DNA from: Eledone cirrhosa
Taxonomy: Eukaryota
Length of the DNA: 64,000 nt
Direction: 5' to 3'
NCBI GenBank assembly: GCA_964016885.1
Contig: OZ024741.1
Span: 314,836,001-314,900,000, forward strand
In this document: positions 9,573-64,000 of the stretch, one piece after another
How the letters are laid out: every line of letters starts with the position of its first letter
Numbering within the stretch: position 1 is the stretch's first letter
Notes under the pieces: generated by a model
Databases searched by the model: none
What the model was told of the DNA's origin: nothing
What the model saw: only the letters and a program-made list of their open reading frames with translations
Made by a program: the position numbers and the translations under genes

Positions 9573-9582
9573 TGATTTCATA

Positions 9583-18138: not shown

Positions 18139-20328
18139 CGTTTCTGAATTTGTTTAGCAAGATTCTTTATCTGAAATCGTGTGTTGAAACCGATATTGTT
18201 ATACTTTGGGAGGGTCATGTTGCCAATAAGAAACACGCACCAGTTGCTTTCACTTCAATTTATTATAATAAATTTATAATAAATTTATAAATTTCTGGTT
18301 GGTTGGTTGGTTCCACAACCAGATAGTTGTTTATACATAGTCATAGTTCTATCGTCACACACTCTGTGACCTCTTCAGTGACTGGGGATTCCTTTCTTTG
18401 TTTCTGTGCCTCTCCTTTGTTCTGTCCTACGCCATTTTGTTTCTGTGTGTGTGTTGTTTGCTCAGTCTGCGCATGCGCCACATCCGGGTGACTGTGTGTG
18501 TTTATGTTCATTTATTTATTTGTTTATTTACATGTTACTGGTTGGTTGTTTGTTCTATGTGTGTGTGTGTTTTCATTTTGTCCTTAATTGTAAGTTGTGA
18601 TGTTGCTGTTCCACTCATATTTTCTATTTAATTTTGGTTGTAATTCTTTTATGTTTATTGCCTCTTTAATTTGTCTAAACATTGCGTCTTTTTTGTGTGT
18701 AGATTCTATTTTTATTTCTATGTTCTCTAATGTATCCTTGTGTTCTATTTTAGCATGTTGGTAGAGTACAGATGATTCTTTACTATCTTGAAGGTCTCGC
18801 CAGTGTTCATTTATCCGTTCCCCTACACTACGAGCTGTTTCACCTATGTACACTATATTTTTGTCTCTACATTGTCCTTCAGTACATCTTATGCTATACA
18901 CTACATTTCTAGTTTTACAGTTAATATGGGGGCTTATTTTACAGGTTATACATTTCTTATCTATACATGAGGTTCTTTGAAAAGGATATGTCTTGCCAAT
19001 AAGTGTTTTTACGGAGGTACCTGGTCTTTCTACTATCTTAATATTGAGTTTATGTTTATTTAGGGCCCTTCTAAATTTGTAAGCTAATTCACCTCTAGGG
19101 GTTGTATCGATGAACATTAGACTCTGGTATTTATTGCTATCATACCATGAGTTTATTCTATTAGCCTTGTTCCTAGTTCTTTCTATTCTATTCCAAAATT
19201 TGCTCCTATACAAGGGGCAGGTCCCATTTATGTCATTATTTACCATTTTTTCCCATTTGGTTCTGGCTCCTCTATACACTCTGATTTTATATCTCTGATT
19301 GTAGCCAGAGAACTGCATACGGTGGTGGAAGTGTTGTATGTGTCTCTCTAGTTCTTCGGGGTTGCACATGCGGGACACATTTCTCATCACTCGTACCAAA
19401 TCCGCAATCAGTATGTTGATTTTGGTATGGTCCGAAACGGCCGTGTTTCGGTGGATCAGATGTTTGGAAGTCATGGGTTTGGCATAATGGGAATGGAGGA
19501 TTTGTTTTTTGTTGTTAATGGTATCTAACCAGAGCTCTGTGTCTAGTACAGGTAATCGATGGTTGGGGTGTTTACTTGGGTAGTCTATAGTAACTCTAAT
19601 GCTCTGGTGGATGGAGTTTGCTATTTGCTGGATGCTTTCCATCGTGTTTTTCTCTAGTTCCTGACTGTTCTCTAGTGGGGGTGTCTTAACTACGATGTTT
19701 ATATCATCAACGTAGCGGGAGTACATTATCATGTTTAAGGGGTCTTCTAATTGTTCTTTAAGTTTAAGTTTAAGTCAACTGTCCCACCATACCATGAATA
19801 AGTTAGCTATGTCGCCTGCAATGATAACACCAATGGCTGCTCCTTCCTCTTGGGCATATCTTTTTCCATTAAATTTGAACATATGTTCCTTAAGGGTTAG
19901 TTTTATGCTGGCCCCTACCGCATGTGCAATCATTTTCTTCAGTTCATCGTGGTTTTCGGGTGTCCGATTGGCTCTGGTCCACCCGTTCCATCTATCTGTG
20001 TGGGTTTTCTTGGCCATTGAGGTAATGGTAGGTGGTCTGCCTCTTGCTGGTCTTATAGGGCACAGGTTGCTAAGGTCATATGTGTCTAGGTAATTATTAC
20101 TATAGGTAAGCTTAAGTAGGAGTCCCAGCTCACTGGTATCAATCCCACGGAACTCAACCTTTCTCTCACTGATCATTTCTACGCATTTCTCCACAGCAAA
20201 ATCCACGTCAATAGATGGATACAGGGACACAACATCCATACTGCCTATTATGCAGTTTGTTAGGTCCCTAGATCGGTTACTCACGCAGATTCTGCTGAGG
20301 AGGTCCTCCGTGCTGTCACATACATCTG
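18136..20328 (-). mobile_element. Penelope-like element family 1 (probably Neptune-like), inverted 5'-truncated copy
   Basis: SMDVVSLYPSI, YAQEEGAAIG, RYVDD, Cys-rich linker, VYSI..YIGETARS..ER..EH GIY-YIG; single stop at 19775-19777. Confidence 0.92.
18339..18383 (-). ncRNA. Hammerhead ribozyme motif of PLE family 1, core mutated (GAAA to GATA)
   Basis: Minus strand reads agtca CTGAAGA g gtcaca gagtg tgtgac GATA gaa CTA tgact. Confidence 0.6.
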
Positions 20329-23300: not shown

Positions 23301-23801
23301 ACACAGAAAAGACGCAATGTTTAGACAAATTACAGAGGCAATAAACATAAAAGAATTACAACCAAAATTAAGTAGAAAATATGAGTGGAACAGCAACATC
23401 ACACCTTACAATTAAGGACAAAATGAAAACACACACACACATAGAACAAACAACCAACCAGTAACATGTAAATAAACAAATAAATAAATGAACATAAACA
23501 CACACAGACACCCGGATGTGGCGCATGCGCAGACTAAGCAAACAACACACACACAGAAAAAAAAATGGCGTAGGACAGAACAAAGGAGAGGCACAGAAAC
23601 AAAGAAAGGAATCCCCAGTCACTGAAGAGGTCACAGAGTGTGTGACGAAAGAACTATGACTATGTATAAACAACTATCTGGTTGTGGAACCAACCAACCA
23701 ACCAGAAATTTATAAATTTATTATAAATTTATTATAATAAATTGAAGTGAAAACAACTGGTGCGTGTGTTTCTTATTGGCAACATGACCCTCCCAAAGTA
23801 T

Positions 23802-23808
<7 letters not shown>
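20329..23808 (+). mobile_element. Penelope-like element family 1, longer direct copy, frameshifted
   Basis: SEIEKTFTRLRW, PTDKSGR, LYGLRKDHK, RPVC, RT and GIY-YIG motifs across ORFs 20346-23415; 3' UTR ends in (TA)n. Confidence 0.93.
23617..23661 (+). ncRNA. Minimal type I hammerhead ribozyme motif in a PLE 3' UTR
   Basis: Stem I agtca/tgact, CTGAAGA, stem II gtcaca/tgtgac, GAAA, CTA cleavage triplet. Confidence 0.75.
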
Positions 23809-23890
<82 letters not shown>

Positions 23891-29025: not shown

Positions 29026-29160
29026 AATGCCCAGAAGGAAAGTATGGTTTATTATGTAATGGGACATGCCATTGTATGAACAACACTAACTGCGACAAGA
29101 GAACTGGATCTTGTTCAGATGGATGTGCTGCAGGTTATATTGGTGACAGCTGCCAACAAG
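29026..29160 (+). CDS. Exon 1: EGF-like 8-Cys repeat (MEGF10/Draper/SCARF type), internal coding exon
   Basis: ttttcag acceptor, AG|gtattt donor, 135 bp, phase 1-1; [45 protein letters not shown]. Confidence 0.9.
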
Positions 29161-30108: not shown

Positions 30109-30235
<127 letters not shown>

Positions 30236-30449
30236 TAAAAGGAAAAGAAAATGCTGACAAATTGTTCCCAGTGAAAAATAGTTTAATTAGGAATAAGTAA
30301 AAGTTAGTAATAGTATTGGTTAGTATTCAGTTTTGGTTTTAAGTTTTACCGGATGCGCATTTCTAATGCTTTTCAAAAATAATTTTGAGATAGAGCGCCC
30401 GTGATGTTTGCTCGAATGTATATAAAATATATATATATATATATATTAT

Positions 30450-33400
30450 TAATTACTTTCTAATTAATTTCAACAATGAGTATTGGACCCGTTCAGATAG
30501 GAATAGAAACTTTGATATTACCATGGGATCATCGGACTCAGCGCAGGTCACCGATCTTCTGGGGATTTTTTTTCTTAAATATGGTAAATAGAAAACTGCC
30601 GGAGATTACCGGTGGTTTATATAGTGACGATATTTTATTTACGGTTGTCAAACATAGCAATACAGAATTAAATAGGGTTAAGAAAACTATAATTGAATTC
30701 TTAAAAAATTATGACCTTAAATTAGAATTTGAAAGTAGTACCAAAATAGTTAATTTCCTTCACGTTACCCTTAACTTAAACTCTGGTTTTTATTACCCTT
30801 TCTATAAGCCCAATGAAAACTTAAATTACGTTAACTATTACTCTAATCACCCTAAATCCGTGAAAAATGCAATAGACAATAGTGTACAGAAACGTATAAC
30901 TAGAATTTACGCTAATAAATCCATATATGATGAAAAAGCAGGATATTATAATGACGCGCTTAGAAAGGCATGTTATAAAAATAATATTGAATATATAGAT
31001 AATAATAATTTTAATTATAATCCTGATAAAAATAAGACTAACATATACAAACAAGATTCTAAAAATTATAATACAAACACCGTGAATAAATCGGCGAAAA
31101 AAATCAGAACTAAATCAGTTATATGGTTTACCCCCCAGCTTCTGTAGCAATAAAAACACCACTCGCAAATCTATTCTTTAAAGCTTTGGATAAATGCTTC
31201 CCCTATTCAACACAAATACCGGTCCATATTTAACAGACACACAATTAAGCTTTCTTATTCTACAACTATGAAAATGGCCCAGAACATCGCAAAAATAAAT
31301 AGTAGAATTCTAAATCATAATCAACAAACAATTAGCGATAATGAATATTAAGACTAGGAATAACAATAACATTGATCTCAACACAATCAATAGAACACTT
31401 CAAAGTACTAAAATGTTAATGTCAATTGTCCAATTTATAGTAATAACAATAAATCGAAATGTAATTGTAGAAATAGATCAAATTGCCCTCTGCAAAATAA
31501 TTGTCTGGATAGCAATCTGGTCTATAAATGCATCGTAAAAGCAAATAACATCACATACAACAACATTGATGCAACTTCATCGACATTTAAATTAAGATTT
31601 GCGAATCATAGATGCTCTTTTTCGAATCCTAATAGGAAATCTTCGACTTCTTTATCACAACTTATATGGTCGTTAAAAGACAAAAATTTAAAATACTCGA
31701 TTTCTTGGTCGAAGCTGTGTAATAGTCGAATATACTCGAATTCTTCAATATCACCTTACTGCAATCTCTGTACCATGGAGACCCTATTAATAATTACTAA
31801 TTATGATAATTTAATTAACAAAAAAAGTGAATTATTCTCAAATTGCCTTCATAAAGCTTCCTCTACATTCCAAGCCTCGCAAAAGGTCAAGAAAAAACAC
31901 TAAATAAATACGTTCTAATTTTTGACGTCTCGTATCAACTAAGTGTGTAAAATGTGATATTAACTTTTTTACTCATTTATGATTTGATAATTGTTAGATT
32001 AAGGGTTGTATATAAATATATTAACATATAGATTGTTAACACGATCTCTTGATGAATATGCATATTTTTTGATTGTGTAGATACATTTAATTTGTTTGGG
32101 ATTCTTGTATTTTTTTAAAATATATAGCTTATATGGTTGACAGATGTAATGAACCGTAAACAATTCTTGCTTTTATGTATTTATGTATTTATTCTATTGA
32201 AGTATGTTAGTTTTAAGATTCACGATGTTTGATTTATATATTTATATTTGTTTATATATATGTATGGTTTATGCGCCGCACAAAGTTTTCTCTTTCTCAT
32301 ATTTGCAGACACTTTAAATATGATACTATACTACTATATAGATCCTTAAAAGTTTTCTTGTATTTTAAATTATATAGCTTAAATATTTGGCACTTATATG
32401 ATTGCAAACAATTTATTTATTTATTTTGAATCTGGTTCGTTTCCTTATGATTCATGAAATTTTTATAGTATTACAGGATCCTAAGATACAATAATTAATC
32501 TAAAACCTTAATTCTAACAATATTAACAGTACGTTATTCATTCTATCATATTATATTGTGTTATATATAACTGATTAATATCGTCTTGAACTTTAGACAA
32601 TATACTTTTTGTATATATTTGGACAAATGCATATATCAAATTTAATAATAACTTTTTAAAGTTTAATTGTAAGGCCTTTAGATGCTTTAGGGCATTCTAA
32701 TTGTTGATTTAAAATGTTTAAAGTTATAACTGTAATTATTTTCTAAATTATATAGTGATAATTATTTTAGTATGGGAAAATAATATAAGATAACATAATT
32801 TAATATGGTTTAACTTCGTGTGGATGAAAATACTAAGTTTCTTTCTCATGTTTGAAAATACTTTAAATATGATTTTATAAATTAAATATATTAGTATACT
32901 TTAATATTAATATAGAAATTTATAAACTTTTATAGCCTGAAATATTATATCTTTAGTTTAATCCATTATACTTAGCTAACATAAGAAATTTGAAATTTAA
33001 CGGTCAGCCGGATAAGTTTGGATATATATGGAGTATAAATAATTGTTAGTATATTTCTTATTAATTGAGGAATTAAACCCTCATATAATTACACCCAGAT
33101 ATATTTAATATTTAGATAGATGGATACTTCTAGATAATTCAAAGATTCGAGTTTACTCTTTCACAATGCTATGCCCAAATGTATATTCATGTATTTATCT
33201 ATGCTTTATCTATAAAAATTATTCCCCTGTGTCTCTCTATCCTTGATCAATTCTCTTTTGCTTTCTATACTTCTAGTAACTATATTTTTTCCTCATCTGT
33301 TTCACTATGTCTTTCTTATTTCTTTCTTCTTTCTTCAATAATTTAAATTATTTCAATCTCTAAAAGTTATGTAAATTTCTATTATGTATTTTTAAGCTTT

Positions 33401-33648
33401 CTCACACGCACCTTCTGTATTATATGTAAGTTTTTTCATGTCTCAATCTTAAGGTATATAAATATTGAGCTTGTCATATCATATTCACTACCATGACTGA
33501 ATCTTAACCATCTACTATGTCAGGGTATGTCATGCATCATCTTATTTTATCTGATGAGAACGTACTGTTGAAGATAGCTCAGTACCCCTGAAATATGTAT
33601 AATAAAATATACTTGATCACACGAATGTCTATTTTTGTTAATATTCTG
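30450..33648 (+). mobile_element. Penelope-like element family 2, 5'-truncated, with a long AT-rich 3' UTR (unit A)
   Basis: FDITMGSSDSAQV, GGLYSDD, VNFLHVTLNL, SNHP, IWFTP, CNCRNRSNCPLQNNCL..LVYKC, CNLC..E..II, CLHK (ends 31883). Confidence 0.88.
33543..33609 (+). ncRNA. Type I hammerhead ribozyme motif at the 3' end of PLE family 2
   Basis: Stem I tattttat/ataaaata, CTGATGA, stem II core gtactg/cagtac (base of stem mismatched), GAAA, ATA triplet. Confidence 0.65.
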
Positions 33649-33653
33649 AAATA

Positions 33654-34950
33654 ACGGGACGTCGCCTGGCGGACCGATTCACTGAGCACCTCCGGGATAT
33701 TCGTCTCGGTGGTAGTTCCCCCATCGCCCGGCACTTTGGTGGCCCTGGACATTCCGCACGCCATCTCACAGTCTGTGGCCTACTCCAATGCCACGGAACA
33801 CCCGCCAATCGCCTTAGAGTCGAACAAAGAAAAATCTTCATCTTACAGACCCACACTCCCCCCGGCATGAACTCCCCACCTTTATTGCTTTAGCCTTCGA
33901 CCGCCCCCCTCCCCCCACACTTATCCTCCACTAACACACCCCTCCTTTTCACCGCCCACCCCACAACTAACAATACTAACAGCTCCACTCCACCCCTCAT
34001 CCCACCACCCTTCCCCAACTAACATACTAACATCCATCCCTTCTTCTCCTTCCCCCCTCCTTATCACACGCACACACCCACCGGCACATATATACACGCG
34101 CTCACACTAAACACACACCCTACTACCACCACTAACCCTCACCCCCACACCACCATCCCAACACCCCGCAACTAACCTCACTAACACCCCCTGACCCCAA
34201 GCACACGAACACACGCACCCAATTACACCAACTCTACACACCCTACCACCACTAACCCCCACTTACACCTGCATTCAACCCTTTCCCCACCTCCCGTATA
34301 CCAACACCCACTAACACCCCCTTCATTAAACTACACACACACCAGTACACCACATTTCCTCCATAGAACTACACACACCCTTCTCTCCCCGCTCCACCCA
34401 CACCCTCGCTCCACACTCACTCATCCCACTAACACCTCTACTAATACACACACACACCCTCCTCACTCCAACTTTCACACCTACCCATCCTCGCCCCTTT
34501 ATCACTCCACCCGACTGCTGCTATGCCCTCTGACCACCTCCCAGCACAAACAGACACACAGCACTCCCACCGCTTGACCACTTCCTGTTGCGCGCGCACC
34601 CCACATCTCTCCTCTTCCGACCATCTCTTCATGGAATACTCGTATGTGGAACTTGACCACCATGGAATCTACTAAACATCATAGGAATTTACCAACATTT
34701 CAACCACCCTCTTACGGAATCACCTATATAACTCACCCACACACACGCCCAAAAAAATGTTTTTCTCCCACACGCCACCTACGCCCACAACACGCTTAAA
34801 CCCCACACACACGTGCTTTCCACCACATATTTACACCCTCAGCCTCCTGATTCCTCTCCCCCCACCCCTCTATCCACACACGCACAGACACTCCGACCCC
34901 CCCCCCCCACATCTTCCTGAAATGCAACCCCGTTCTTCCCCCAACGCTTA

Positions 34951-34990
<40 letters not shown>
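33654..34990 (+). mobile_element. Penelope-like element family 3 (GIY-YIG end plus C/A-rich 3' UTR), cut by the duplication breakpoint
   Basis: 33654..33893 translates TGRRLADRFTEHLRDIR..PIARHF..GHS..LTVCGL..RLRVEQRKIFILQTHTPPGMN; not in the supplied ORF track. Confidence 0.85.
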
Positions 34991-34994
<4 letters not shown>

Positions 34995-37174
34995 TCATAT
35001 TTACCTTCTTGACAGACAACTAATCATATTTACCTTCAGATGTATGTGACAGCACGGAGGACCTCCTCAGTAGAATCGGCGTGAGTAACCGATCTAGGGA
35101 CCTAACAAACTGCATAATAGGCAGTATGGATGTTGTGTCCCTGTATCCATCTATTGACGTGGATTTTGCTGTGGAGAAATGCGTAGAAATGATCAGTGAG
35201 AGCAAGGTTGAGTTCCGTGGGATTGATACCAGTGAGCTGGGACTCCTACTTAAGCTTACATATAGTAATAATTACCTAGACACATATGACCTTAGGAACC
35301 TGTGCCCTACAAGACCAGCAAGAGGCAGACCACCTACCATTACCTCAATGGCCAAGAAAACCCACACAGATAGATGGAACGGGTGGACCAGAGCCAATCG
35401 GACACCCGAAAACCACGATGAACTGAAGAAAATGATTGCACATGCGGTAGGGGCCAGCATAAAACTAACCCTTAAGGAACATATGTTCAAATTTAATGGA
35501 AAAACATATGCCCAAGAAGAAGGAGCAGCCATTGGTGTTAGCATTGCAGGCGACATAGCTAACTTATACATGGTATGGTGGGACAGTAGACTTAAATTTA
35601 AACTTAAAGAACAATTAGAAGACCCCTTAACCCTGATAATGTACTCCCGCTACGTTGATGATATAAACATCGTAGTTAAGACACCGCCACTAGAGAACAG
35701 TCAGGAACTAGAGAAAAACACAATGGAAAGCATCCAGCAAATAGCAAACTCCATCCACCAGAGCATTAGAGTTACTATAGACTACCCAAGTAAACACCCC
35801 AACCATTGATTACCTGTACTAGACACAGAGCTCTGGTTAGATACCATTAACAACAAAAAAACAAATCCTCCATTCCCATTATGCCAAACCCATGACTTCC
35901 AAACATCTGATCCACCGAAACTGGGCCGTTTCGGACCATACCAAAATCAACATACTGATTGCGGATTTGGTACGAGTGATGAGAAATGTGTCCCGCATGT
36001 GCAACCCCGAAGAACTAGAGAGACACATACAACATTTCATCCACGGTATGCAGTTCTCTGGCTACAATCAGAGGGATAAAATCAGAGATAAAATCAGATA
36101 AAATAAATATAGAGGAGCCAGAACCAAATGGGAAAAAATGGTAAATAATGACATAAATGGGACCTGCCCCTTGTATAGGAGCAAATTTTGGAATAGAATA
36201 GAAAGAACTAGGTATCATGGTATGATAGCAATAAATACCAGAGTGTAATGTTCATCGATACAACCCCTAGAGGTGAATTAGCTTACAAATTTAGAAGGGC
36301 CCTAAATAAACATAAACTCAATATTAAGATAGTAGAAAGACCAGGTACCTCCGTAAAAACACTTATTAGCAAGACATACCCTTTTCAAAGACCCTCCTGT
36401 ATAGATAAGAAATGTATAACCTGTAAAATAAGTCCCCATATTAACTGTAAAACTAGAAATGTAGTGTATAGCATAAGATGTACTGAAGGACAATGTAGAG
36501 ACAAAAATATAGTGTACATAGGTGAGACAGCTCGTAGTGCAGGGGAACGGATAAATGAACACTGGCGAGACCTTCAAGATAGTAAAGAATCATCTGTACT
36601 CTACCAACATGCTAAAATAGAACACAAGGGTAAATTAGAGAACATAGAAATAAAAGTAGAATCTACACACAGAAAAGACGCAATGTTTAGACAAATTACA
36701 GAGGCAATAAACATAAAAGAATTACAACCAAAATTAAGTAGAAAATATGAGTGGAACAGCAACATCACAACTTACAATTAAGGACAAAATGAAAACACAC
36801 ACACACATAGAACAAACAACCAACCAGTAACATGTAAATAAACAAATAAATAAATGAACATAAACACACACAGACACCCGGATGTGGCGCATGCGCAGAC
36901 TAAGCAAACAACACACACACAGAAAAAAAAATGGCGTAGGACAGAACAAAGGAGAGGCACAGAAACAAAGAAAGGAATCCCCAGTCACTGAAGAGGTCAC
37001 AGAGTGTGTGACGAAAGAACTATGACTATGTATAAACAACTATCTGGTTGTGGAACCAACCAACCAACCAGAAATTTATAAATTTATTATAAATTTATTA
37101 TAATAAATTGAAGTGAAAACAACTGGTGCGTGTGTTTCTTATTGGCAACATGACCCTCCCAAAGTATAACAATA
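34991..37174 (+). mobile_element. Penelope-like element family 1, third copy (start of unit B)
   Basis: ORFs 35081-36781 are nearly identical to 21654-23415. The first 46 bp are the reverse complement of 20329..20374. Confidence 0.93.
36983..37027 (+). ncRNA. Minimal hammerhead ribozyme motif, PLE family 1
   Basis: Identical to 23617..23661. Confidence 0.75.
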
Positions 37175-37318
37175 TATATATATATATATTGGAAAATGTG
37201 TGAAATCCTTGGTACAGTTGGCTATATTGAAAGAAAAAGAAAATAATGACTTTACCTTATATATATATATACATATAAGGTAAAGAGCAATTAAGTTAAT
37301 CCGGAGAAGGCAAAGGTG

Positions 37319-38106: not shown

Positions 38107-40069
38107 CACCGTGTAACAAAAACAAAATTTCTCTGTTCCTGGCTTGTAATCACTTTTTTTCAAAATAAATAATTGTTTCTACTTTAGGCACAAGGCCAGC
38201 AATTAACCAGTGCATTACTGGTACTTTATTTTATCGACCCTGTATGGATGAAAGGCAAAGTCAACCTCGGCGGGATTTGAACTCAGATCGTAAAGGGACG
38301 TAACTATGCTGGAAGGCATGGCGTCCGACCCTCTACCGATACTGCCAATCCAAATAAATAATAAAGTGCTATTAAACAGTTAAAAGTTTGGGTTTGTAAA
38401 AATTCTAAGCTATCCACTAGAATTATTTGTATGCTGGATTTTACGTTGTATGTAAGCTTAACTTTCTTATGTGAAATGATTTTTTTATATATGTTTCAGG
38501 TTAAATTAAAATTATTAAATAAAGAGTAATACATAAAGAAAATTATAAAAGTGCAATAAAGTATAAAATTGTTAAAAAGTGGATTAAAGAGATTTATTGA
38601 TACTGGGGTACCAGAAAAAGTTCCTCACTTCCCAAACCAAAAAGAAGTCAATGACTTTGTCAGAGATATGGTTCTAACCAAGTCCAATGCAGAGCTATTC
38701 GTTTCCTGAATGAAGCAGTGGAACTTGGTCAAGGAGGAAGTACAGGTGATAAGTCAGAGAAGTTGACACAAACCTTTCTCAGGCTTTTACACTCTTAGGG
38801 ATGGCCTCTGCTTCTGCCATGACGTGCCTGGATTGTCTGACGTTATTGGGGTGCCGTTTGTGCCAAAGGAGTGGTGGCTATTTATATACAGCTCCACCAC
38901 AAGTTTGAAGGCTGTCCTCCTCCACAATGGAAACAAGTTCCCGCCACTGCCCCTAGCTCATTCAGTCTGCCTGAAGGAAGATTACTACAGTGTGAAAGTC
39001 CTCTTGGAAGCTCTGCAATACAACCTGTACAATTGGGAAATTATTGGAGACTTCAAGATGGTGGCTTTCCTGCTTGGACTCCAAGGAGGCTTTATCAAAT
39101 TCCAATGCTTGCTCTGCCTTTGGGACAGCAGAACCACCTCTGACCACTACAAAAGAAAGAACTGGGAGCAGCGAACAGAATTTGTAGTTGGGACCCGGAA
39201 CGTCATGTGTGAGCCACTGGTTGATCCCAGGATTGTGCTCATACCGCCACTGCACATTCAGTTGGGGTTGATGAAGCAGTTTGTGAAGGCTCTCAATCAA
39301 GAATCATCCGCTTTTAAGTACCTTCTTGAGTTCTTCCCCAAGTTATCTGAGGCCAAAATGAAAGGTGGAATTTTTGTTGGACCTCAGATAAAGAAGGTGT
39401 TTGATTCTATCGAGTTCTCCAATAAGCTCAATAGGATTGAGAAAACAGCATGGAACTGTTTCATGTCAGTTGTTAAGGGCTTCCTGGGTAACTACTGACC
39501 TGAAAACTACCAGCAACTGGTGCAGGATCTGATAAAGACTTTTGGCGCCATGGGATGCAGGATGTCGCTTAAACTCCATATTCTGGACGCTCACCTGGAA
39601 AAATTCAAGGACAATATGGGCTCTTACTCAGAAGAACAAGGCGAACGATTCCACCAAGATGTGAAAGAGATAGAGCGGAGGTAGCAGGGCCACTACATGA
39701 ACAAATGATGGGGGACTATATCTGATTGCTAGTGCAGGAATGCGACCTGGACTACAACCGCAAATACAGAAAATCCCGTCATTTCTGACGTGTATAAGTT
39801 GCATTATAAGTGTTATTTGTTTTTACTTGTTTGCTTTTGATAAGCTTGTGTAATAAAATAAATATATACTCTGTTGATTTAATTATATGAACTGATAAAT
39901 TGAAAAAAAATGTGTTTTTTCTTGAAAAATATAAACATTTCGAAATAACAAACTCCTGACAAAAGACCCAAACTTCTGATTAAATAATAGTATTTTTTGA
40001 TAATAATGGGATATATCAAACCAGGAAATAATAAGTAAAGCAGGGGAACAATAAATATATTACACGGTG
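38107..40069 (+). mobile_element. Chapaev3-type DNA transposon, longer copy with a decayed transposase
   Basis: Same termini and TTA duplication. ORF 38824..39498 has SLKAVLLHNGN, GDFKMV..LLGLQGGF.K..C.LCLWDSR, PPLHI.LGLMKQFVKAL. Confidence 0.88.
38171..38352 (-). mobile_element. tRNA-derived SINE family A nested in Chapaev3 (duplicate)
   Basis: Matches 26085..26266. Confidence 0.85.
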
Positions 40070-41631: not shown

Positions 41632-41766
41632 AATGCCCAGTAGGAGAGTATGGTTTATTATGTAATGGGACATGCCATTGTATGAACAACGCTAACTGCG
41701 ACAAGAGAACTGGATCTTGTTCAGATGGATGTGCTGCAGGTTATATTGGTGACAGCTGCCAACAAG
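41632..41766 (+). CDS. Exon 2: EGF-like 8-Cys repeat
   Basis: Canonical AG/GT, 135 bp; [45 protein letters not shown]. Confidence 0.9.
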
Positions 41767-44242: not shown

Positions 44243-44328
<86 letters not shown>

Positions 44329-44544
44329 TAAAAGGAAAAGAAAATGCTGACAAATTGTTCCCAGTGAAAAATAGTTTAATTAGGAATAAGTAAAAGTTAG
44401 TAATAGTATTGGTTAGTATTCAGTTTTGGTTTTAAGTTTTACCGGATGCGCATTTCTAATGCTTTTCAAAAATAATTTTGAGATAGAGCGCCCGTGATGT
44501 TTGCTCTAATGTATATAATATATATATATATATATATATATTAT

Positions 44545-47500
44545 TAATTACTTTCTAATTAATTTCAACAATGAGTATTGGACCCGTTCAGATAGGAATA
44601 GAAACTTTGATATTACCATGGGATCATCGGACTCAGCGCAGGTCACCGATCTTCTGGGGATTTTTATCTTAAATATGGTAAATAGAAAACTGCTGGAGAT
44701 TACCGGTGGTTTATATAGTGACGATATTTTATTTACGGTTGTCAAACATAGCAATACAGAATTAAACAGGGTTAAGAAAACTATAATTGAATTCTTAAAA
44801 AATTATGACCTTAAATTAGAATTTGAAAGTAGTACCAAAATAGTTAATTTCCTTCACGTTACCCTTAACTTAAACTCTGGTTTTTATTACCCTTTCTATA
44901 AGCCCAATTAAAACTTAAATTACGTTAACTATTACTCTAATCACCCTAAATCCGTGAAAAATGCAATAGACAATAGTGTACAGAAACGTATAACTAGAAT
45001 TTACGCTAATAAATCCATATATGATGAAAAAGCAGGATATTATAATGACGCGCTAAGAAAGGCATGTTATAAAAATAATATTGAATATATAGATAATAAT
45101 AATTTGAATTATAATCCTGATAAAAATAAGACTAACATATACAAACAAGATTCTAAAAATTATAATACAAACACCGTGAATAAATCGGCGAAAAAAATCA
45201 GAACTAAACCAGTTATATGGTTTACCCCCCAGCTTCTGTAGCAATAAAAACACCACTCGCAAATCTATTCTTTAAAGCTTTGGATAAATGCTTCCCCTAT
45301 TCAACACAAATACCGGTCCATATTTAACAGACACACAATTAAGCTTTCTTATTCTACAACTATGAAAATGGCCCAGAACATCACAAAAATAAATAGTAGA
45401 ATTCTAAATCATAATCAACAAACAATTAGCGATAATGAATATTAAGACTAGGAATAACAATAACATTGATCTCAACACAATCAATAGAACACTTCAAAGT
45501 ACTAAAATGTTAATGTCAATTGTCCAATTTATAGTAATAACAATAAATCGAAATGTAATTGTAGAAATAGATCAAATTGCCTTCTGCAAAATAATTGTCT
45601 GGATAGCAATCTGGTCTATAAATGCATCGTAAAAGCAAATAACATCACATACAACAACATTGATGCAACTTCATCGACATTTAAATTAAGATTTGCGAAT
45701 CATAGATGCTCTTTTTCGAATCCTAATAGGAAATCTTCGACTTCTTTATCACAACTTATATGGTCGTTAAAAGACAAAAATTTAAAATACTCGATTTCTT
45801 GGTCGAAGCTGTGTAATAGTCGAATATACTCGAATTCTTCAATATCACCTTACTGCAATCTCTGTACCATGGAGACCCTATTAATAATTACTAATTATGA
45901 TAATTTAATTAACAAAAACTGTGAATTATTCTCAAATTGCCTTCATAAAGCTTCCTCTACATTCCAAGCCTCGCAAAAGGTCAAGAAAAAACACTAAATA
46001 AATACGTTCTAATTTTTGACGTCTCGTATCAACTAAGTGTGTAAAATGTGATATTAATTTTTTTACTCATTTATGATTTGATAATTGTTAGATTAAGGGT
46101 TGTATATAAATATATTAACATATAGATTGTTAACACGATCTCTTGATGAATATGCATATTTTTTGATTGTGTAGATACATTTAATTTGTTTGGGATTCTT
46201 GTATTTTTTAAAAATATATAGCTTATATGGTTGACAGATGTAATGAACCGTAAACAATTCTTGCTTTTATGTATTTATGTATTTATTCTATTGAAGTATG
46301 TTAGTTTTAAGATTCACGATGTTTGATTTATATATTTATATTTGTTTATATATATGTATGGTTTATGCGTCGCACACGATCCTATTCGACAAACGTTTTC
46401 CACTTAACTTGATGTTAAACTTCAATTATAATTTTACTAACAATGTTTTTTATTATTTATTTATTATATGTATATGGATCACTAATATCGTCTCGAGTTC
46501 CGAACAGAATACTCTGTATGTGTTTGGAAAAGTGTGAATATCTGGTTTAATAACAGGCTTCTAGCTACATGTATAAGTACTCTAGATACTTAAGGACATT
46601 CTAGTGTTATAATTGTTAAATATTTTCTAAATTATATAACGATTATTATTTTTTAATTTAATTAAATTCGGGTTACCTTCGGGTCGATGAAAATCTTAAG
46701 TTTTCTCTTTCTCATATTTGCAGACACTTTAAATATGATACTATACTACTATATAGATCCTTAAAAGTTTTCTTGTATTTTAAATTATATAGCTTAAATA
46801 TTTGGCACTTATATGATTGCAAACAATTTACTTATTTATTTTGAATCTGGTTCGTTTCCTTATGATTCATGAAATTTTTATAGTATATATGTATTACAGG
46901 ATCCTAAGATACAATAATTAATCTAAAACCTTAATTCTAACAATATTAACAGTAACTTATTCATTCTATCATATTATATTGTGTTATATATAACTGATTA
47001 ATATCGTCTTGAACTTTAGACAATATACTTTTTGTATATATTTGGACAAATGCATATATCAAATTTAATAATAATTTTTTAAAGTTTAATTGTAAGGCCT
47101 TTAGATGCTTTAGGGCATTCTAATTGTTGATTTAAAATGTTTAAAGTTATAACTGTAATTATTTTCTAAATTATATAGTGATAATTATTTTAGTATGGGA
47201 AAATAATATAAGATAACATAATTTAATATGGTTTAACTTCGTGTGGATGAAAATACTAAGTTTCTTTCTCATGTTTGAAAATTTTTTAAATATGATTTTA
47301 TAAATTAAATATATTAGTATACTTTAATATTAATATAGAAATTTATAAACTTTTATAGCCTGAAATATTATATCTTTAGTGTAATCCATTATACTTAGCT
47401 AACATAAGAAATTTGAAATTTAACGGTCAGCCGGATAAGTTTGGATATATATGGTGTATAAATAATTGTTAGTATATTTCTTATTAATTGAGGAATTAAA

Positions 47501-48072
47501 CCCTCATATAATTGCACCCAGATATATTTAATATTTAGATAGATGGATACTTCTAGATAATTCAAAGATTCGAGTTTACTCTTTCACAAAGCTATGCCCA
47601 AATGTATATTCATGTATTTATCTATGCTTTATACTATAAAAATTATTCCCCTGTGTCTCTCTATCCTTGATCAATTCTCTTTTGCTTTCTATACTTCTAG
47701 TAACTATATTTTTTCCTCATCTGTTTCTCTCTGTCTTTCTTATTTCTTTCTTCTTTCTTCAATAATTTAAATTATTTCAATCTCTAACAGTTATGTAAGT
47801 TTCTATTATGTATTTTTAAGCTTTCTCACACGCACCCTCTGTATTATATGTAAGTTTTTTCATGTCTCAATCTTAAGGTATATAAATATTGAGCTTGTCA
47901 TATCATATTCACTACCATGACTGAATCTTAACCATCTACTATGTCAAGGTATGTCATGCATCATCTTATTTTATCTGATGAGAACGTACTGTTGAAGATA
48001 GCTCAGTACCCCTGAAATATGTATAATAAAATATACTTGATCACACGAATGTCTATTTTTGTTAATATTCTG
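44545..48072 (+). mobile_element. Penelope-like element family 2 (unit B), hammerhead motif at 47967..48033
   Basis: Duplicate of 30450..33648 with about 320 extra bp near 46378-46696. Confidence 0.88.
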
Positions 48073-48077
48073 AAATA

Positions 48078-49455
48078 ACGGGACGTCGCCTGGCGGACCG
48101 ATTCACTGAGCACCTCCGGGATATTCGTCTCAGTGGTAGTTCCCCCATCGCCCAGCACTTTGGTGGCCCTGGACATTCCGCACGCCATCTCACAGTCTGT
48201 GGCCTACTCCAATGCCACGGAACACCCGCCAATCGCCTTAGAGTCGAACAAAGAACTATCTTCATATTACAGACCCACACTCCCCCCGGCCTGAACTCCC
48301 CACCCTTATTCCTTTAGCCTTCGATCCCACCCTCCCCCCACACTTATCCCCCACTAACACCACTAACACACCCCTCCTTTTCACCGCCCACCCCACAACT
48401 AACAATACTAACAGCTCCACTCCACCCCTCATCCCACCACCCTTCCCCAACTAACATACTAACATCCATCCCTTCTTCTCCTTCCCCCCTCCTTATCACA
48501 CGCACACACCCACCGGCACATATATACACGCGCTCACACTAAACACACACCCTACTACCACCACTAACCCTCACCCCCACACCTCCATCCCACCACCCCG
48601 CAACTAACCTCACTAACACCCCCTGACCCCAAGCACACGAACACACGCACCCACTTACACCACCCACCTCACACGCAACTAACATCACTAACACCCCCAA
48701 CCCCACGCACACGTACCCACACACCCTCGTACACCACCAACTCTACACACCCTACCACCACTAACCCCCACTTACACCAGCATTCAACTCTTTCCCCACC
48801 TCCCGTATACCAACACCCACTAACACCCCCTTCATCAAACTACACACACACCAGTACACCACATTCCCTCCATAGAACTACACACACCCTTCTCTCCCCG
48901 CTCCACCCACACCCTCGCTCCACACTCACTCATCCCACTAACACCTCTACTAATACACACACACACACCCTCCTCACTCCAACTTTCACACCTACCCATC
49001 CTCGCCCCTTTATCATTCCACCCGACTGCTGCTATGCCCTCTGACCACCTCCCAGCACAAACAGACACACAGCACTCCCACCGCTTGACCACTTCCTGTT
49101 GCGCGCGCACCCCACATCTCTCCTCTTCCGACCATCTCTTCATGGAATACTCGTATGTGGAACTTGACCACCATGGAATCTACTAAACATCATAGGAATT
49201 TACCAACATTTCAACCATCCTCTTACGGAATCACCTATATAACTCAGCCACACACACCCAAAAAAAATGTTTTCTCCCACACGCCACCTACACCCACAAC
49301 ACGCTTAAACCCCACACACACGTGCTTTCCACCACATATTTACACCCCCAGCCTCCTGGTTCATCTCCCCCCACCCCTCTATCCACACACGCACAGACAC
49401 TTCGACCCCCACACCTCTTCCTGAACATGCAACCCCGTTCTTCCCCCAAGGCTTA

Positions 49456-49498
<43 letters not shown>

Positions 49499-51085: not shown

Positions 51086-51220
51086 AATGCCCAGTAGGAG
51101 AGTATGGTTTATTATGTAATGGGATATGCCATTGTATTAACAACACTAACTGTGACAAGGGAAATGGCTCTTGTCCAGATGGATGTGCTGCAGGTTATAT
51201 TGGTGACAGCTGCCAACAAG
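51086..51220 (+). CDS. Exon 3: EGF-like 8-Cys repeat
   Basis: Canonical AG/GT, 135 bp; [45 protein letters not shown]. Confidence 0.9.
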
Positions 51221-55916: not shown

Positions 55917-56446
55917 CTCACATACACACACACACGCACAGAACCATATAACTAATAACATTCGCGTCCACGGAGGCCTGCCTACATGCCCGCGTACATC
56001 ATCTCTCATACACACACGCGCATACACACCCGCACGCGCATACATCCGTACACACATATAAATGTACACACAAACAAGCGCTTACCCTACAGTAGGTGCA
56101 CGTACACACACACACATACACATACACACACACACACACTGGCTCATATACACTCAAACAAATACGCACCTAATATCTACATGCCCCGTACATCTACAAA
56201 GATACATACACACATACATATATCTGTCCGTACTCAAATATGATATACTCACAGAGTCATATAAATCTGCACAATGGGTCATACAGGGTCATCCATGAAA
56301 GGATGTATCTTGTTATACACATCACATGCACAAATATAAACAATGCAACCAAATACATACATCCATACACATACATGCATGTATACATACACACATATAA
56401 ATAAATAAATAAGTATATGAAAAAGAAATAAATGTATATATATATG

Positions 56447-56502
<56 letters not shown>

Positions 56503-57363
56503 TACACATATATATGTACATGCACACACATACGTACACATCTATAAAAAAAACTACAACATACAAAAATATACATATAACGTCATACATTAAAAGATGT
56601 ATCTTGTACTAAACATGCACGAATATAAACAGTATATTCATATACATACATCCATACACATTCACATACATATCTCTCTCTCTCTACACACACACATATA
56701 TATATATATATATACACATACGCATACACGTATACACACATAAAAACATATATATACAATATATTAAAATATACATATAACGTCACATAGAGATATATAA
56801 AAAAAAAAGAGAAGAAAGATGGAGGGACGTGTATGCGTATGATATAGTACATATGGGGAATATACATCCGCGATTTAAAGGTCGTGGATGTTGCGCCGAT
56901 GGAGGTGAACTTTATATTGTGGGTGCTAACCACACATTTATATACCAGGCCCTTCGTCAGGCATCTTCTCTGTACGGGGCACTGGGTGCCCGCACTGCAG
57001 TAACCTGATCTGTCGTTATTATGTTCAATTCGGACGCCTGGCCCTCGATCTGCTAGGGCCCTTCTCCCGATTCTCAGGGTGTTGTTCCGCTGGCACGATG
57101 CCCCCCCCCCCCTTCCGCCACTAGTCCTCTCCTGGCGTTGGATTATATCGCCTTCCGTGGGCGTGGCGGCCTCCGCGGGGCCGGGTTGTAGTTGTAAGGC
57201 CGCTCCCCGTAGGTTTCTCCACGCTCCGATGGATGGTCATTCTGCCGCCGCGGTTGACGGTCGATGTTCCACATCTTTATCGCGTTGGTTTATTCGGCCA
57301 TGTTAGGTGCTGTTGAGAAGGAAATCTTCACCGTGTGACGGTTGGAAATCTTGTGGTATTTTG

Positions 57364-59595
57364 TCAACAGCACCTAACATGGCCGACTACATGGCCAAAA
57401 CCAACGCGGTAAAGATGGGGAGCATCGACCGTCAACCGTGGCGGCAGAATGACAGTCCATCGTAGCGTGGAGGAACCTTCGGGGCCCGGCCTTCCAACAA
57501 CAACCCGGCCCCCCGCAGCGGCCGCCACGCCCGTGGAAAGCTATATAATCCAACGCCAGGAGGGAACAAGTGGCGGTGGGGGGAGGGAGACCATCGTGCC
57601 GGCGGTTCAACACCCTGAGAATCGGGAGAGGGACCTAGCAGATCGAGGGCCAGGCGTCCGAAGTGAAAAAAATAACGACAGACACATGTAACTGCAGAGC
57701 GGGCATCAGAGCCCCCTACAGAGAAGATGCCTGACGAAGAGCCTGGTATTTAAATGTCTGGTTAGCACCCACAATATAAAGCGCACCTACATCGGCGCAA
57801 CATCCACGACCTTTAAATCGCGGATGTATAACCACACAAACTCTTTCAAGGACCACAGTAAGAGGCACTCTACTAAGCTAGCGGACCTGGTGTGGGACTT
57901 GAAAGACAAAGGCCCTTGACTGGAGTATCGTTCGGCACGCGAATGCATACTCGGCTGCAAGTAGAAACTGTAGCCTATACCTATACGAGACCATGGAAAT
58001 AGTCGACCTGAAGGATGATGCGGTCAACCTGAAATCGGAAATGATCATGACCTGCAGACACCAGAGAAGGTGCACACTCTCCGCATGGAATCCACCGGGA
58101 AGCCCAGACTAAGGACATGCGGCTGAGCACGCACCGACCAGAGCCACAAAACTGGTTCAAGGGATCAGACACCATAGGCTGATGATAATATATGCCCCGT
58201 GGGGTAAACTAAAACAACCCAAGATGCATACCCGACTCTGCACGTTACCCTAGGCAAGGTCATCGCCTGAGCCGGGACAGTTTGACCCGGATTCCGCGGT
58301 CTTTCAGTCAAATACCTTACACCTATAGGACAACATACCTCAACCACAGTGACATACTCCAATATGGCCGGGCTAAGCACCCCCATGCATGTGTACCTTT
58401 TCAATCGAGAAAACATATATTCTCCACGTGTTCCATTTTGGAACACATATTATTTGTTCCGTATACAGACCCAATTGTGCATCTCATATTCCCCATATGT
58501 ACTATATCATAAGCATACACGTCCCTCCTTCTTTCTTCTCTTTTTTAAATATATCTATGTGACGTTATATGTATATTTTAATATATTGTATATTTATTTT
58601 ATTTATTTTATGTGTGTATATGTGTATGCGTATGTGTATATATATATATGTGTTAGTATGTACATGGTATGTGAATGTGTATGGATGTATGTATATGAAT
58701 ATACTGTTTATATTCGTGCATGTTTAGTACAAGATACATCTTTTAATGTATGACGTTACATGTATATTTTAGTATAATGTAGTTTTTTTATAGATGTGTA
58801 TGTATGTGTGTGCATGTACATATACATGTGTGTGTGTGTGTATGTGTGTGTATATATATATGTATGTGTATATATATATACATTTATTTCTTTTTTATAT
58901 ACTTATTTATTTATTTATATGTGTGTATGTATACATGCATGTATGTGTATGGATGTATGTATTTGGTTACATTGTTTATATTTGTGCATGTGTATAACAG
59001 GATGCATCCTTTCATGGATGACCCGGTATGACTCATTGTGCAGATTTATATGACTGTGACTATATCATATTTGAATACGGACAGGTATATGTATGTGTGT
59101 ATATTTATGTGTGTGAACATATACATATATACATGTGTGTTTGGGAGCGAGTCTGTTATTGTGCCTGTATATACGGACACGTGTATGTACGTGCGTGTGC
59201 GTCTGTGTGTGCGCGTGTATGTGTGAGAGAGCAGATGTACGTGGGCATGTAGGCAGGCGTCTGTGGACGCGTATGTTGTTAGTTATATGGTTGTGTGCGT
59301 ATGTGGGTGTATGTGAGTGTGTTTATATATATATATATGTGTGTGTATGTGTATATGTGTGTGTGAGTGCGCGAGTCGACTTGGGAAATAGCAAACCCAG
59401 CATGAATTCATTGAAGTGTGTCAGGCGGAGGGTCAGCTGATGGCCAGTCTGACAGAAACTATTGGCCAGAATTTATGATGACGTAGAAAAACAACAGTCA
59501 ACAGCAGAACAAGCGAGAGAGATATTTTTTTAGGCTAACGCCACAGTGGGAAAATTTGATTCGAAATTATTGCAAGTGTCCGCAAACCTGCAGGT
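57364..59595 (+). mobile_element. Penelope-like element family 4, right arm (GIY-YIG plus microsatellite-rich 3' region)
   Basis: About 57685-58112 translates CLTKSLVFKC..TYIGATSTTFKSRMYNH..SF..STKLADLVW..WSIV..TCRHQ. Confidence 0.85.
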
Positions 59596-60187: not shown

Positions 60188-60348
60188 AATTATAGTAGAA
60201 CTGATTCAAGGAAAGGTTTCTGATATTTATGCATGCAATGTTTCTAATTATATTGATTATTATTTACCATAAGGTCATAAGGCATTGTAAAATTGCTGTT
60301 CTGGTTTTACATGAACTTAACATCTCTTTAAGTAATATACAGTATCAA

Positions 60349-62085
60349 TGTATATGGACGGGTCTAATCTCAACATCAAATATTTAGAATTACAGTCGGT
60401 CACAGTTAGTGTGAGTGAGTACACACACCGACGCAAGGTCGAAGAAAAAATATATATACAAACCAACATAGTATTCACCGAAAGTTAGTTTACAAAACGA
60501 CAAATGTTATATTAGTCAAATCTCCATTTGACGGTGTACATTGGAGAAAATTGGGTCAACCGCAATCATATACACACGCAAGTAAATTCAGTTCAATATT
60601 CTGCTATACGTGTATCGATTGAATTGTAAATAGTGTGTTTTGGTATATACACATCCGTATCGTCTAAAAAGTGTATGTTTTGGGATATACACATCCACGT
60701 GAAGAGCAAGTAGTCAGCTCATATCAAACTCTGTATGTGCCGTTGTACCATTGAGAATCTGAGTCCCCAAATCTGTGCGTGCAAGCAACCGCCATGTAGG
60801 CCACCAAGAGACTCTGTGTAGGGTTGGGTATTTGAGTTAAGGTGTCAGTATGTGCTTTTCCCGTCAAATGGGCCCCTGGGCTTTTAAGATAGGTGTTTGA
60901 GTGGTGGAGGGGTGTTACCCAACACAGAAATAAAATAAAATAAAATAAAAAAGAATAGCAAAACCCCGAGGATGTGTGTAAGCCCATTAACGGTGTGTAA
61001 GTAATATTTCCAATCAGTAACCGTGAACACTCCATGGTTAGATGATCACGGATCAAAACCTAGTGTAGTGTTCAATTGATAGGATCGTGACCAGTCATAA
61101 CTGTGGGAACTCCGTGTCTAAAGAGACCGGGTAATGTGTAGAGTCATGTATGAAGAGCGTAATCGGTCTTAACTGAATGTGTAATACGTCTAACTATTTA
61201 CTAACCGAGAGAACTCAATGGATGGGTATTCTAAAGTAATGGTGAAAGCGCGTAATCGGTCTTAACTGAGTGTGTAATCATTCTAACTATTTACTAACTA
61301 GGTATTCTAAAGTAGTGGTAAATGTGCACTCAGCTGTGAGAACTCCGGGGAAACAAACCGAGTACCGTTTGTAAGTGAGCAAATGATCTAAGCTGTCTAC
61401 TACCTGAGTGTATGATTGTCTGTGTTTTGCTAATTGACAGAACTCTATGGCTAAGGTAAAAAGGGAGGAGTTAGTGGTAGGTTACTTTCCAAAAATCCTG
61501 CGGAAGATTTTCGAGGTTCTATGTTGGCAGTTGCTGAAACAATCCGCTCTCCTATTGATTAATAGGAGGCCGCCTCTAATAATATTAAAGGTTTCAGCGA
61601 TATATAAATTACAGACGCCCGTGCTGCTGTAATAAGGCTGGGCTGAGCAAATTATGGACCAGGAAAAGGAGTGTTCTATATTCCAGACTAATTCAGAAAG
61701 CGCAGTGCTATTTTTTTAATCTAATCTATTAAAGGTGATTATACCATCTATCCTTAAATTCAGTGGCAGTTGCTCCATCATACATGAAGGTTCTACCTTA
61801 CAGTCCTAGACTATGTTTTTGGTGAGGCATTCACCAGCCATGGGGCAAGTGGCGGTGTTCCTGAAATTCCATTTTCTGTTATCGACCTGGGTAGTTCCAG
61901 AGGAACCACGGTACCTCTGATGACGGGTCTCAGTTATTGTCTGCTCTATGGGTAAGTTCCCAGGGGTTGGGGTGACCCGACTCGCCTCACGCGTATGAGA
62001 CCGTTCATCCATAGAGCTGCCATTAATTCTGCCATGTCTCATCCCGCCTTGGGCTGTCCTAAGTCTACTACAATTCATCTTATTT
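60349..62085 (-). mobile_element. Penelope-like remnant family 5 (GIY-YIG plus probable 3' UTR)
   Basis: Minus strand: CPMAGECLTKNIV, GATATEFKDRWYNH, NSTALSELVW, WSII..AQPY..CNL..AE..II, NCQH. The left boundary is inferred from where the unit's intron sequence is interrupted. Confidence 0.7.
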
Positions 62086-62560
62086 TGATATATAATTGCA
62101 AACGAATCGAATATTAGTATTAATATTCGAAAACCTCAGATTACGTTTATTGTATTCAGCCATGTAGGGCGAATTTTTTTTTTATTTGAATATTGCAAAG
62201 CTAGACATAAATCGCTTGTATTTTGTCGTTAAATATAAGAATATCACTAATAATTGTAGTAGAACTGATTCAAGGAAAGATTTCTGATATTTGTGCATGC
62301 AATGTTTCTAATTATATTGATTATTATTTTCCATAAGGTCATAAGGCATTGTCAAATTGCTGTTCTGGTTTTACATGAACTTAACATCTCTTTATGTAAT
62401 ATACTGTATCAATATTTTATTTAATAGTTGTATGCAGACTGATTCGTTTATCAACACTTTAATCTTATAATTATTGATATGGTATAAAATTGATACCACA
62501 TCTAAAATTGTATGTAATTAATGATATCTTCAACATTATCATTTACACTGATATTTTCAG

Positions 62561-62695
62561 AATGCCCAGTAGGAAAGTTTGGTTTATTTTGTCATGGGAT
62601 ATGCCATTGTATGCACAACTATTTCTGTGACAAGAGATATGGATATTGTTTAAGTGGATGTGCTGCAGGTTATTTTGGTCGCAACTGCCAAGAAG
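62561..62695 (+). CDS. Exon 4: EGF-like 8-Cys repeat, divergent and aromatic-rich
   Basis: Canonical AG/GT, 135 bp; ECPVGKFGLFCHGICHCMHNYFCDKRYGYCLSGCAAGYFGRNCQE. Confidence 0.9.
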
Positions 62696-62753
62696 GTATT
62701 TCCTAAAGATGCTAAGTATTTATTTGAGAACGCAAATATCGTATATATATATA

Positions 62754-62795
<42 letters not shown>

Positions 62796-62816
62796 TGTAC
62801 TTGTGTGTAAGTATGG

Positions 62817-62862
<46 letters not shown>

Positions 62863-62899
62863 GTGTGTATGTGTGTGTATGTGTATAAATGTGTGTATG

Positions 62900-62930
<31 letters not shown>

Positions 62931-63930
62931 ATGTATATGTGTGTGTGCGTGTGTGTGTGTGCATGTATGTTTATCTACTTTTATATTTATTATTTTTCCT
63001 TTACTTCTTCCTTTTCCAGCCTCACTTTCATATATATTATATTATATATTATATTTTTGTTTTTAAAATCCACTGTCAATAAATATACCAGGATTTTTTC
63101 ATTCTGATGACTGAAAGCAAATTTTGTTTGCTTTCAAGAAACCACTGGTAAATGAATTAATTATTTGATGTTGTTTATTACATAACTAATAAGCTCTGTA
63201 ACCTACATAGAACACTCTTTTTTCCTGGAACTTTCCGACGGAATTAATTCTTTTATATATATATATATATATATAATAAGAGAATGCGAAGTAGTTTCAG
63301 ATTTTAAAGTCCTTTAAGGGTGTGATACATATTTCAATGACGACAGAGGCCACCCGCTTCTGTGTACCAAGTGCCGTGACATCATCTGATAGCGTATACA
63401 TAATAAGGTTATGTTCCCGAGGCAATCCAAATTAAATCGACAAGGGAACGGACACAGCGGGGGTTCTTGAATCCTTCGACCGATCCCGTGTGTCTAAATT
63501 CACCCCACCGTTTTCCGCAGGCGCAAGTCCGAAGGAAGTTGAACATCCACTATCCCAAAACCCTACGAAACTCGCCTAGGCATGTCCCCTCACACCACAA
63601 CGAAATAATCTCCCATCCAGGTCGGTAATATGAGACGGTTATAGTTTACTTCTAGTCGCCCAGCCAGTGGCAGTTGAACGAAACCTAGTGGTGGTGGCAG
63701 AGTATGAGTTACAATAGACCTCGATTCTGCCCCTAAATTATGCTTGGACAATATAATTGACCATCACCCGCTAAGAGAATATAAACTTAATTCTAGATTT
63801 TATGATTTCACAGTTGAAATTATGATAAAAAATTAGAAATTAAAAAATTACAAGCTAAATTCTTAAATTGAAGTAAATAAATAAAAAATGTTTTTTTAAA
63901 TATACATATATAGATAAATGTGGCACAATG

Positions 63931-64000
63931 TGGCACAATGCCAGCAATTACACAGTGCATTACTGGTATTTTATTTTATCGACTCCGTAAGGATGAAAGG
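63931..64000 (-). mobile_element. tRNA-derived SINE family A, cut by the window end
   Basis: ggcacaatgccagcaatt...ttttatcgactccgtaaggatgaaagg, at the position equivalent to the 43180 copy. Confidence 0.8.

Follow-up and report, generated by a model that had tools for sequence, protein, structure and literature searches.

Evidence for diversifying selection on tandem EGF-like exons of a predicted receptor family in Eledone cirrhosa

In the snail Biomphalaria, the SudRes1 and LG5R receptor genes, which are clustered and combine MEGF with galactose-binding (plus PTP) domains, map to schistosome resistance, and they have many replacement differences and EGF loss (PMC12297450, PMC13712769). The locus from Eledone cirrhosa analysed here resembles these 'scavenger class F-like' genes in being a cluster of molluscan genes that have duplicated and carry tandem EGF repeats of MEGF10/SCARF type, and in its many nonsynonymous differences, its gain and loss of EGF repeats and its structurally unstable region. 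A galactose-binding-domain exon also occurs in the E. cirrhosa cluster. Unlike in Biomphalaria, single EGF exons have been amplified here to arrays of dozens to more than 100, dN/dS above 1 was measured among the repeats, and no link was found between the array and TM or PTP exons.

Among named proteins, the closest relatives are from Octopus and have F5/8 (galactose-binding), EGF and TM parts, often with PTP. The F5/8-EGF-TM-PTP proteins of Octopus sinensis and O. vulgaris (P0151, P0152, P0166 and P0171) have the same 44-residue repeat as the array, 57–61% identical at best, and P0017 and P0023 are relatives of the same kind without PTP. The order at the head of the Octopus proteins, EGF-EGF-lectin-EGF, is that of a gene head neighbouring the array. 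Among the human proteins with EGF-like repeats, SCARF1 has a cysteine spacing that aligns with the array repeat, although the latter has extra residues before the seventh cysteine, unlike SCARF1, MEGF10 and PEAR1. SCARF1 recognises ligands via charged residues in an N-terminal EGF-domain fragment (PMC11563577). No description of rapid tandem-exon diversification was found for SCARF1, MEGF10 or PEAR1.

Snake-venom PLA2 and three-finger toxin genes, in which exons outrun introns and KA is at or above KS (PMC7285919), are similar in pattern alone (fast exons, scaffold kept); the proteins are unrelated and there is no sign of a toxin here. In oyster sperm bindin, tandem F-type lectin repeats diversify by positive selection, recombination and splicing (PMC5712786). 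Like the array, bindin is a molluscan system of one-exon tandem modules with positive selection and recombination; it diversifies a lectin repeat and the array an EGF repeat. No study of selection in the cephalopod members of the EGF receptor family was found in the literature covered, which mostly excludes subscription journals.

The window, a stretch of 64,000 nt (C2:314836001-314900000) of the 3.0-Gb genome, contains four of the array exons, E1 to E4. Positions are those of the window:

29026-29160, + strand: E1, paralogous EGF-like exon (135 nt, TTTCAG acceptor, GT donor, phase 1-1)
41632-41766, + strand: E2, paralogous EGF-like exon (135 nt, TTTCAG acceptor, GT donor, phase 1-1)
51086-51220, + strand: E3, paralogous EGF-like exon (135 nt, TTTCAG acceptor, GT donor, phase 1-1)
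62561-62695, + strand: E4, a single 8-cysteine EGF-like (MEGF10/SCARF-type) repeat (135 nt, TTTCAG acceptor, phase 1-1)
62696-62701, + strand: splice donor (GT) of E4
62331-62560, + strand: acceptor-proximal intron, homologous across E1-E8, slower than the remaining flank and at about the rate of synonymous sites
60355-62560, + strand: upstream block of about 2.2 kb common to E4 and its sister unit E6, about 2% diverged, a clean clock for E4
63543-64000, + strand: start of a 1.8-kb downstream block common to E4 and E6, 3.3% diverged, continuing beyond the window end

Six further intact exons, E5 to E10, follow within 47 kb downstream of those in the window, such that the array comprises ten intact tandem phase 1-1 exons, on one strand and in frame, over 80 kb, in which units of exon plus intron have multiplied in tandem. 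The sister of E4 in both the exon tree and the intron tree is E6 (C2:314915541), 17 kb downstream. All ten exons have eight invariant cysteines in the eight-cysteine laminin-type EGF spacing. The repeat has a profile match to SCARF1 in the PDB (8hna, E=0.0026) and also aligns to repeats of 6u11, and its nearest Atlas clusters are EGF/laminin-EGF (0.91). Pfam gave weak EGF_laminin and EGF_STAB1-2 matches, the best for E4 being 18.6 bits, below the cut-off of 27; in the Pfam domain register, the exon borders are internal. A homologue search with a single exon as query returned no match.

Other elements were also observed in the window. Retroelement-like copies (18193-23809, 34982-37175, and 30233-34954 / 44326-49459; weak RVT_1 match at 21446-22306) are partly duplicated along with the E1 and E2 units, at 96–99% identity. 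An element at 56206-59102 has terminal inverted arms of about 660 bp and an internal inverted duplication; its internal frame is putatively that of a GIY-YIG/Penelope-like retroelement. Long transposon-like frames are present at 178-3015, 5370-9576 and 38767-39495, with a single weak zf-RVT match at 8164-9267.

The sequence-only reading had held that the exon diverges about five times faster than its own intron, almost entirely by amino acid replacement, and its counts were reproduced exactly. E3 and E4 differ at 23 of 135 nt (18 codons, 17 replacements and one silent change) and at 7 of the 230 nt of upstream intron; E1 and E2 differ by three changes, all replacements, and E2 and E3 by six replacements and two silent changes, with all eight cysteines fixed across E1-E4. 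The excess in the exon is real, but its size depends on the clock and ranges from 2.4-fold with the full flank to 4.5-fold with E6. Between E3 and E4 the flank is slowest in the proximal intron, with 7/230 differences as compared with 15/229 further upstream and 189/2366 downstream (3.0% proximal vs 8.0% downstream, Fisher p=0.004); with all 2825 aligned flank bases outside microsatellites as the clock, the exon as a whole shows a composition-matched excess of 2.4-fold (p=1.4e-4). E4 and E6 differ at 16 of 135 exon positions (14 replacements and two silent changes) and at 106 of 3925 flank positions, a 4.5-fold composition-matched excess (p=1e-6), with flanks evenly 2.2–3.3% diverged on both sides throughout 3.9 kb; against silent sites alone, the 14 to 2 ratio is not significant. 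In the exon-versus-flank test of nine pairs, the excess was significant in four of the five containing E4 (E2-E4 being the exception, p=0.054), while in the four without E4 or E6 the exon was only 1.0–1.5 times as diverged as the flank. Since E4 was chosen from a genome scan, these single-pair p-values are optimistic.

Across 18 distant comparisons, divergence was 14–25% in the proximal intron, 8–36% at silent sites and 22–42% at replacement sites, replacement exceeding silent divergence in 17. The proximal intron and silent sites are thus similarly diverged, and the former is a fair clock for silent change. Within E1-E8, the proximal 230 nt evolve 2–5 times more slowly than the downstream flank (significant in seven of nine pairs), which is not accounted for by base composition and may reflect joint conversion of the exon and its proximal intron, or a splicing element or constraint. 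An Rfam search of window positions 61500-64000 gave no match. A second part copy of the proximal intron, without an exon, is present at 60188-60349 (96% identical to 62252-62413) and adjoins a short interspersed repeat.

The slow proximal intron raises the possibility that the non-cysteine positions are neutral, and that the contrast comes from splicing constraint slowing the proximal intron and silent sites, or from gene conversion homogenising them. The significant slowness in seven of nine pairs is consistent with this, as are exon tracts with a discordant pattern of sharing (for example, between E3 and E7, or between E8 and E4/E6) and the near-equality of exon and flank in pairs lacking E4 and E6. 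Against it, replacement sites between E4 and E6 have reached 14% with flanks that are 2.2–3.3% diverged over 3.9 kb, so that recent conversion of the intron is rejected as the cause for this pair; replacement sites between E3 and E4 (21.7%) exceed the full flank (7.5%); and simulations with recombination give omega of 0.5–0.8, not 1.8. This explanation is largely refuted for E4/E6 and we regard it as distinctly unlikely for the array. Differences in rate confounded a Sawyer-type run test applied across intron and exon, which was left out of the evidence.

The divergence of E4 could alternatively have been imported, if the exon had been overwritten by conversion from an older, distant paralog. 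The states F6, Y26 and L30 of E4 do recur in distant paralogs, and up to four of its nine private sites are shared, singly. No donor was found, however, among 67 exons or the scored genomic matches: the best match to the 3' 96 nt of E4 is E6 (86%, 40 of 54 candidates scored, so that a donor could lie among the others or have been lost), and none of the 67 exons contains an exact tract holding two of the private sites. An old exon would also bring silent changes with it, of which E4 has one or two relative to E1-E3 and E6, and intermediate codons are present in the sister E6. Import is therefore very unlikely. That E4 is an assembly or consensus error, in a region that is highly repetitive and of mixed orientation, is less credible still, and we give it almost no weight. 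A short-read contig of run X1 is identical to window positions 62584-62722 with zero differences, which makes such an error unlikely, although the run may derive from the assembly's own sample, and errors would not leave all cysteines, the frame and the silent sites untouched.

Codon models were fitted with our own Muse-Gaut-type code, not codeml; in the site models, branch lengths were fixed up to scale and site calls were NEB. The local set, E1-E8, consists of the copies with homologous introns and was analysed on two trees (exon and intron) under two frequency models. Whole-exon omega was 2.1–2.6 in all four combinations (p 0.006–0.03). M8 was favoured over M8a (p=6e-4 on the exon tree, 7.5e-5 on the intron tree), with omega of 3.6–4.5 on about half of the sites; positions 5, 20, 25, 30 and 38 were selected on both trees, to which the exon tree added 31 and 40. 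The site tests remained significant without E4 (p=0.004) and without E4 and E6 (p=0.005), but M0 alone did not (p=0.065 and 0.12, respectively). A branch test on E4 gave p=0.034. A count made without a tree found 54 replacement and 8 silent steps, a ratio of 1.9–2.4, the test being marginal (p 0.008–0.055, varying with kappa). None of the 54 replacement steps falls in a cysteine codon (chance about 2e-5 by hand calculation), which argues that the exons are translated now or were until recently.

The five codons with two-base differences between E3 and E4 noted earlier were counted correctly, but four of them represent successive single steps on different branches: the intermediate is present in another copy for codons 21, 30 and 31, and the first step at codon 40 is common to E6, codon 20 having no resolved intermediate. 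The estimated rate of double hits is 0 and the likelihood drops as the multi-nucleotide rate is raised; multi-nucleotide mutation was rejected as the cause. CpG- or GC-driven hypermutation was likewise rejected, as half of the exon changes start from A and the excess survives composition matching. Under neutral simulation with within-exon recombination, one of 68 runs reached the local statistic.

A protein search of the genome, with 1817 first-look candidates, matched all 150 that were scored, and the family therefore comprises at least 150 exons; by hand count, C2 310-315 Mb has 116 of these and C10 25.9-27.3 Mb the other 34. One false exon call and broken copies were excluded before reaching a sample of 67 intact exons, part of which was chosen by DNA similarity to E4; removal of one exon with a codon deletion and seven duplicates left 59 distinct exons for testing. 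These gave omega of 1.81 (p=2e-6; 1.62–1.66 under other codon frequencies) and a site-test 2dlnL of 113. Omega was 1.72 for the 51 exons other than E1-E8 and 2.06 for the 16 exons on C10 alone. Heavy simulated neutral recombination gave omega of 0.51–0.82 and a 2dlnL often above 6, so the site-test p-values are inflated; none of 32 runs came near 113, the maximum being 41.6. The excess is not found in every sub-array, as one short-unit array on C10 has a raw N/S of 0.94. At C2:314528000-314623000, a further array (L018-L030) consists of 13 or more nearly identical units, each about 7 kb long and with one EGF exon; its 10 replacement steps and one silent step are not significant against silent sites alone. 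The selection signal is family-wide and strongest on the E4/E6 lineage. The proposal of diversifying selection has thus held with more paralogs, and the signal survives the tests for recombination and double mutations and the removal of E4; we consider the selection on the array exons very probably real.

E4 has 11 F, Y, W or H residues, the highest number among the 67 exons (median 4), and E6 is second with nine; these aromatic and histidine gains came stepwise. An N-glycosylation sequon is absent from both exons, and, as at least one is found in 46 of the 67, this absence is not rare by itself. The sequences suggest a change from a glycosylated spacer-type repeat to an exposed candidate binding patch. 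The AlphaFold model of E4 is of low confidence (pLDDT 62.6), and a Foldseek search with it gave no match at E<=0.001, the weak rows being mostly EGF domains. The changed positions may be surface residues engaged in an arms race, as was proposed from the sequence.

A gene head with the order EGF-EGF-lectin (two exons)-EGF is located 0.5 Mb downstream of the array (C2:315422331-315516392). Its lectin includes a PF22633 exon at C2:315461051 (+ strand), to which an orphan lectin exon at 314022915 (− strand) is homologous. Of the F-type lectin motifs h2DGx (cation) and HX24RXDX4(R/K) (fucose) (PMC5712786), the gene-head lectin has the former and does not match the latter, its exon junction being approximate. 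No EGF body was found after this head up to 315.80 Mb, with a 200-N assembly gap at 315618134, and no galactose-binding exon was found upstream of the array on the + strand. Neither tblastn nor a scan for hydrophobic exons yielded a credible TM exon, short divergent exons being easily missed. PTP exons were sought at C2 310-316 Mb, where 0 of 72 PF00102 matches and 0 of 35 Octopus-PTP matches fell, in an exon-wise search that may miss short exons; the PTP-bearing counterparts of the Octopus proteins are at C2 257 and 261 Mb, outside the array cluster. In about 1.7 Mb searched, the array's own head and tail were not found, there being no signal peptide, lectin, TM or PTP exon that could be linked to E1-E10. 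Because of this, membership of E1-E10 in the molluscan galactose-binding-domain plus EGF (with or without PTP) receptor family, to which their sequences point, is put no higher than likely.

A hydrophobic frame at window positions 15564-15695 and its copies, considered as a TM or signal exon, were rejected, as they proved to be AT-rich intron with stops in some copies, homologous to a stretch 230–340 nt upstream of each exon; that stretch was itself considered as a decayed exon, for which alignment gave no support. An inversion joining the lectin exon at 314.02 Mb to the array was also considered, but had no gap or matching exon in its support.

Further copies and clusters were seen elsewhere in the genome. 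Several EGF exon copies in the same cluster (L008, L011 and L014; C2:314932936, 315069744 and 315077423) are broken or partial (frameshift, stop or lost acceptor) and reflect birth-and-death of exons. At C2:313.9-314.5 Mb, EGF exons in mixed orientation accompany the orphan lectin exon, without assembly gaps in the parts examined; the mixed orientation is due to inverted duplications. About 12 short EGF-like exons with a 258-bp period lie at C2:231112968-231115916, inside a lectin-EGF-PTP cluster at 230-233 Mb. More than 20 near-identical F5/8 lectin-like exons, 100–200 kb apart, occur at C20 3.5-5.3 Mb, C27 13.1-15.4 Mb, and on C16, C22 and C23; they are another recent expansion, in a related family.

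The reading we favour, and hold to be somewhat more probable than all others together, is that the repeats are under diversifying selection on the outward-facing side of what is predicted to be a cell-surface receptor, probably one with variable non-self ligands. Tandem duplication has multiplied in-frame 135-nt exon units, each encoding one eight-cysteine EGF-like repeat, in which amino acid changes have accumulated faster than silent and intronic changes while the cysteines stayed fixed. Splicing would place the exons in the ectodomain of a SCARF/MEGF10-like receptor, one of the galactose-binding-domain plus EGF (with or without PTP) kind, in which E4 and E6 would have turned from glycosylated spacer-type repeats into an exposed binding patch, with pathogen or parasite ligands as the putative driver. 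Granted the selection, an immune driver is fairly probable.

The same selection could be exerted by a non-immune partner, in gamete recognition or in self-recognition between cells of the nervous system or skin. MEGF10/Draper act in neural engulfment and protocadherins are expanded in cephalopods, both of which would suit such a partner, and the sequence signal does not separate partner types. The tandem lectin repeats of oyster bindin, diversified by positive selection, recombination and splicing, are a molluscan precedent (PMC5712786), but the only functional data found for the molluscan architecture point to parasite resistance. A non-immune partner is accordingly possible, though considerably less probable than the non-self reading.

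A few genes with megabase arrays might draw on more than 100 interchangeable EGF cassette exons, under diversifying selection, through combinatorial splicing, giving cephalopods a Dscam-like repertoire of recognition receptors in which E4/E6 are a new aromatic binding module. Symmetric phase 1-1 exons permit alternative splicing of the array, and the search of C2 310-315 Mb, with its roughly 116 scored exons, yielded a single complete gene head and a single orphan lectin exon. The uniform phase, the few heads and the slow 230 nt of acceptor-side intron are consistent with this scheme, which we nevertheless think unlikely.

The type of receptor is already known in molluscs, while the scale of the EGF exon arrays is unusual. 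In receptors of this type, the EGF repeats are generally taken to be stalks. In the present family it is these repeats that bear diversifying selection, in dozens of exons on two contigs, with positions 5, 20, 25, 30 and 38, which were selected in all local fits, as candidate contact positions. On the favoured reading, the exons represent a candidate cephalopod family for non-self recognition, parallel to the schistosome-resistance loci of snails; if the arrays are alternatively spliced, they would constitute a new diversity-generating system in molluscs.
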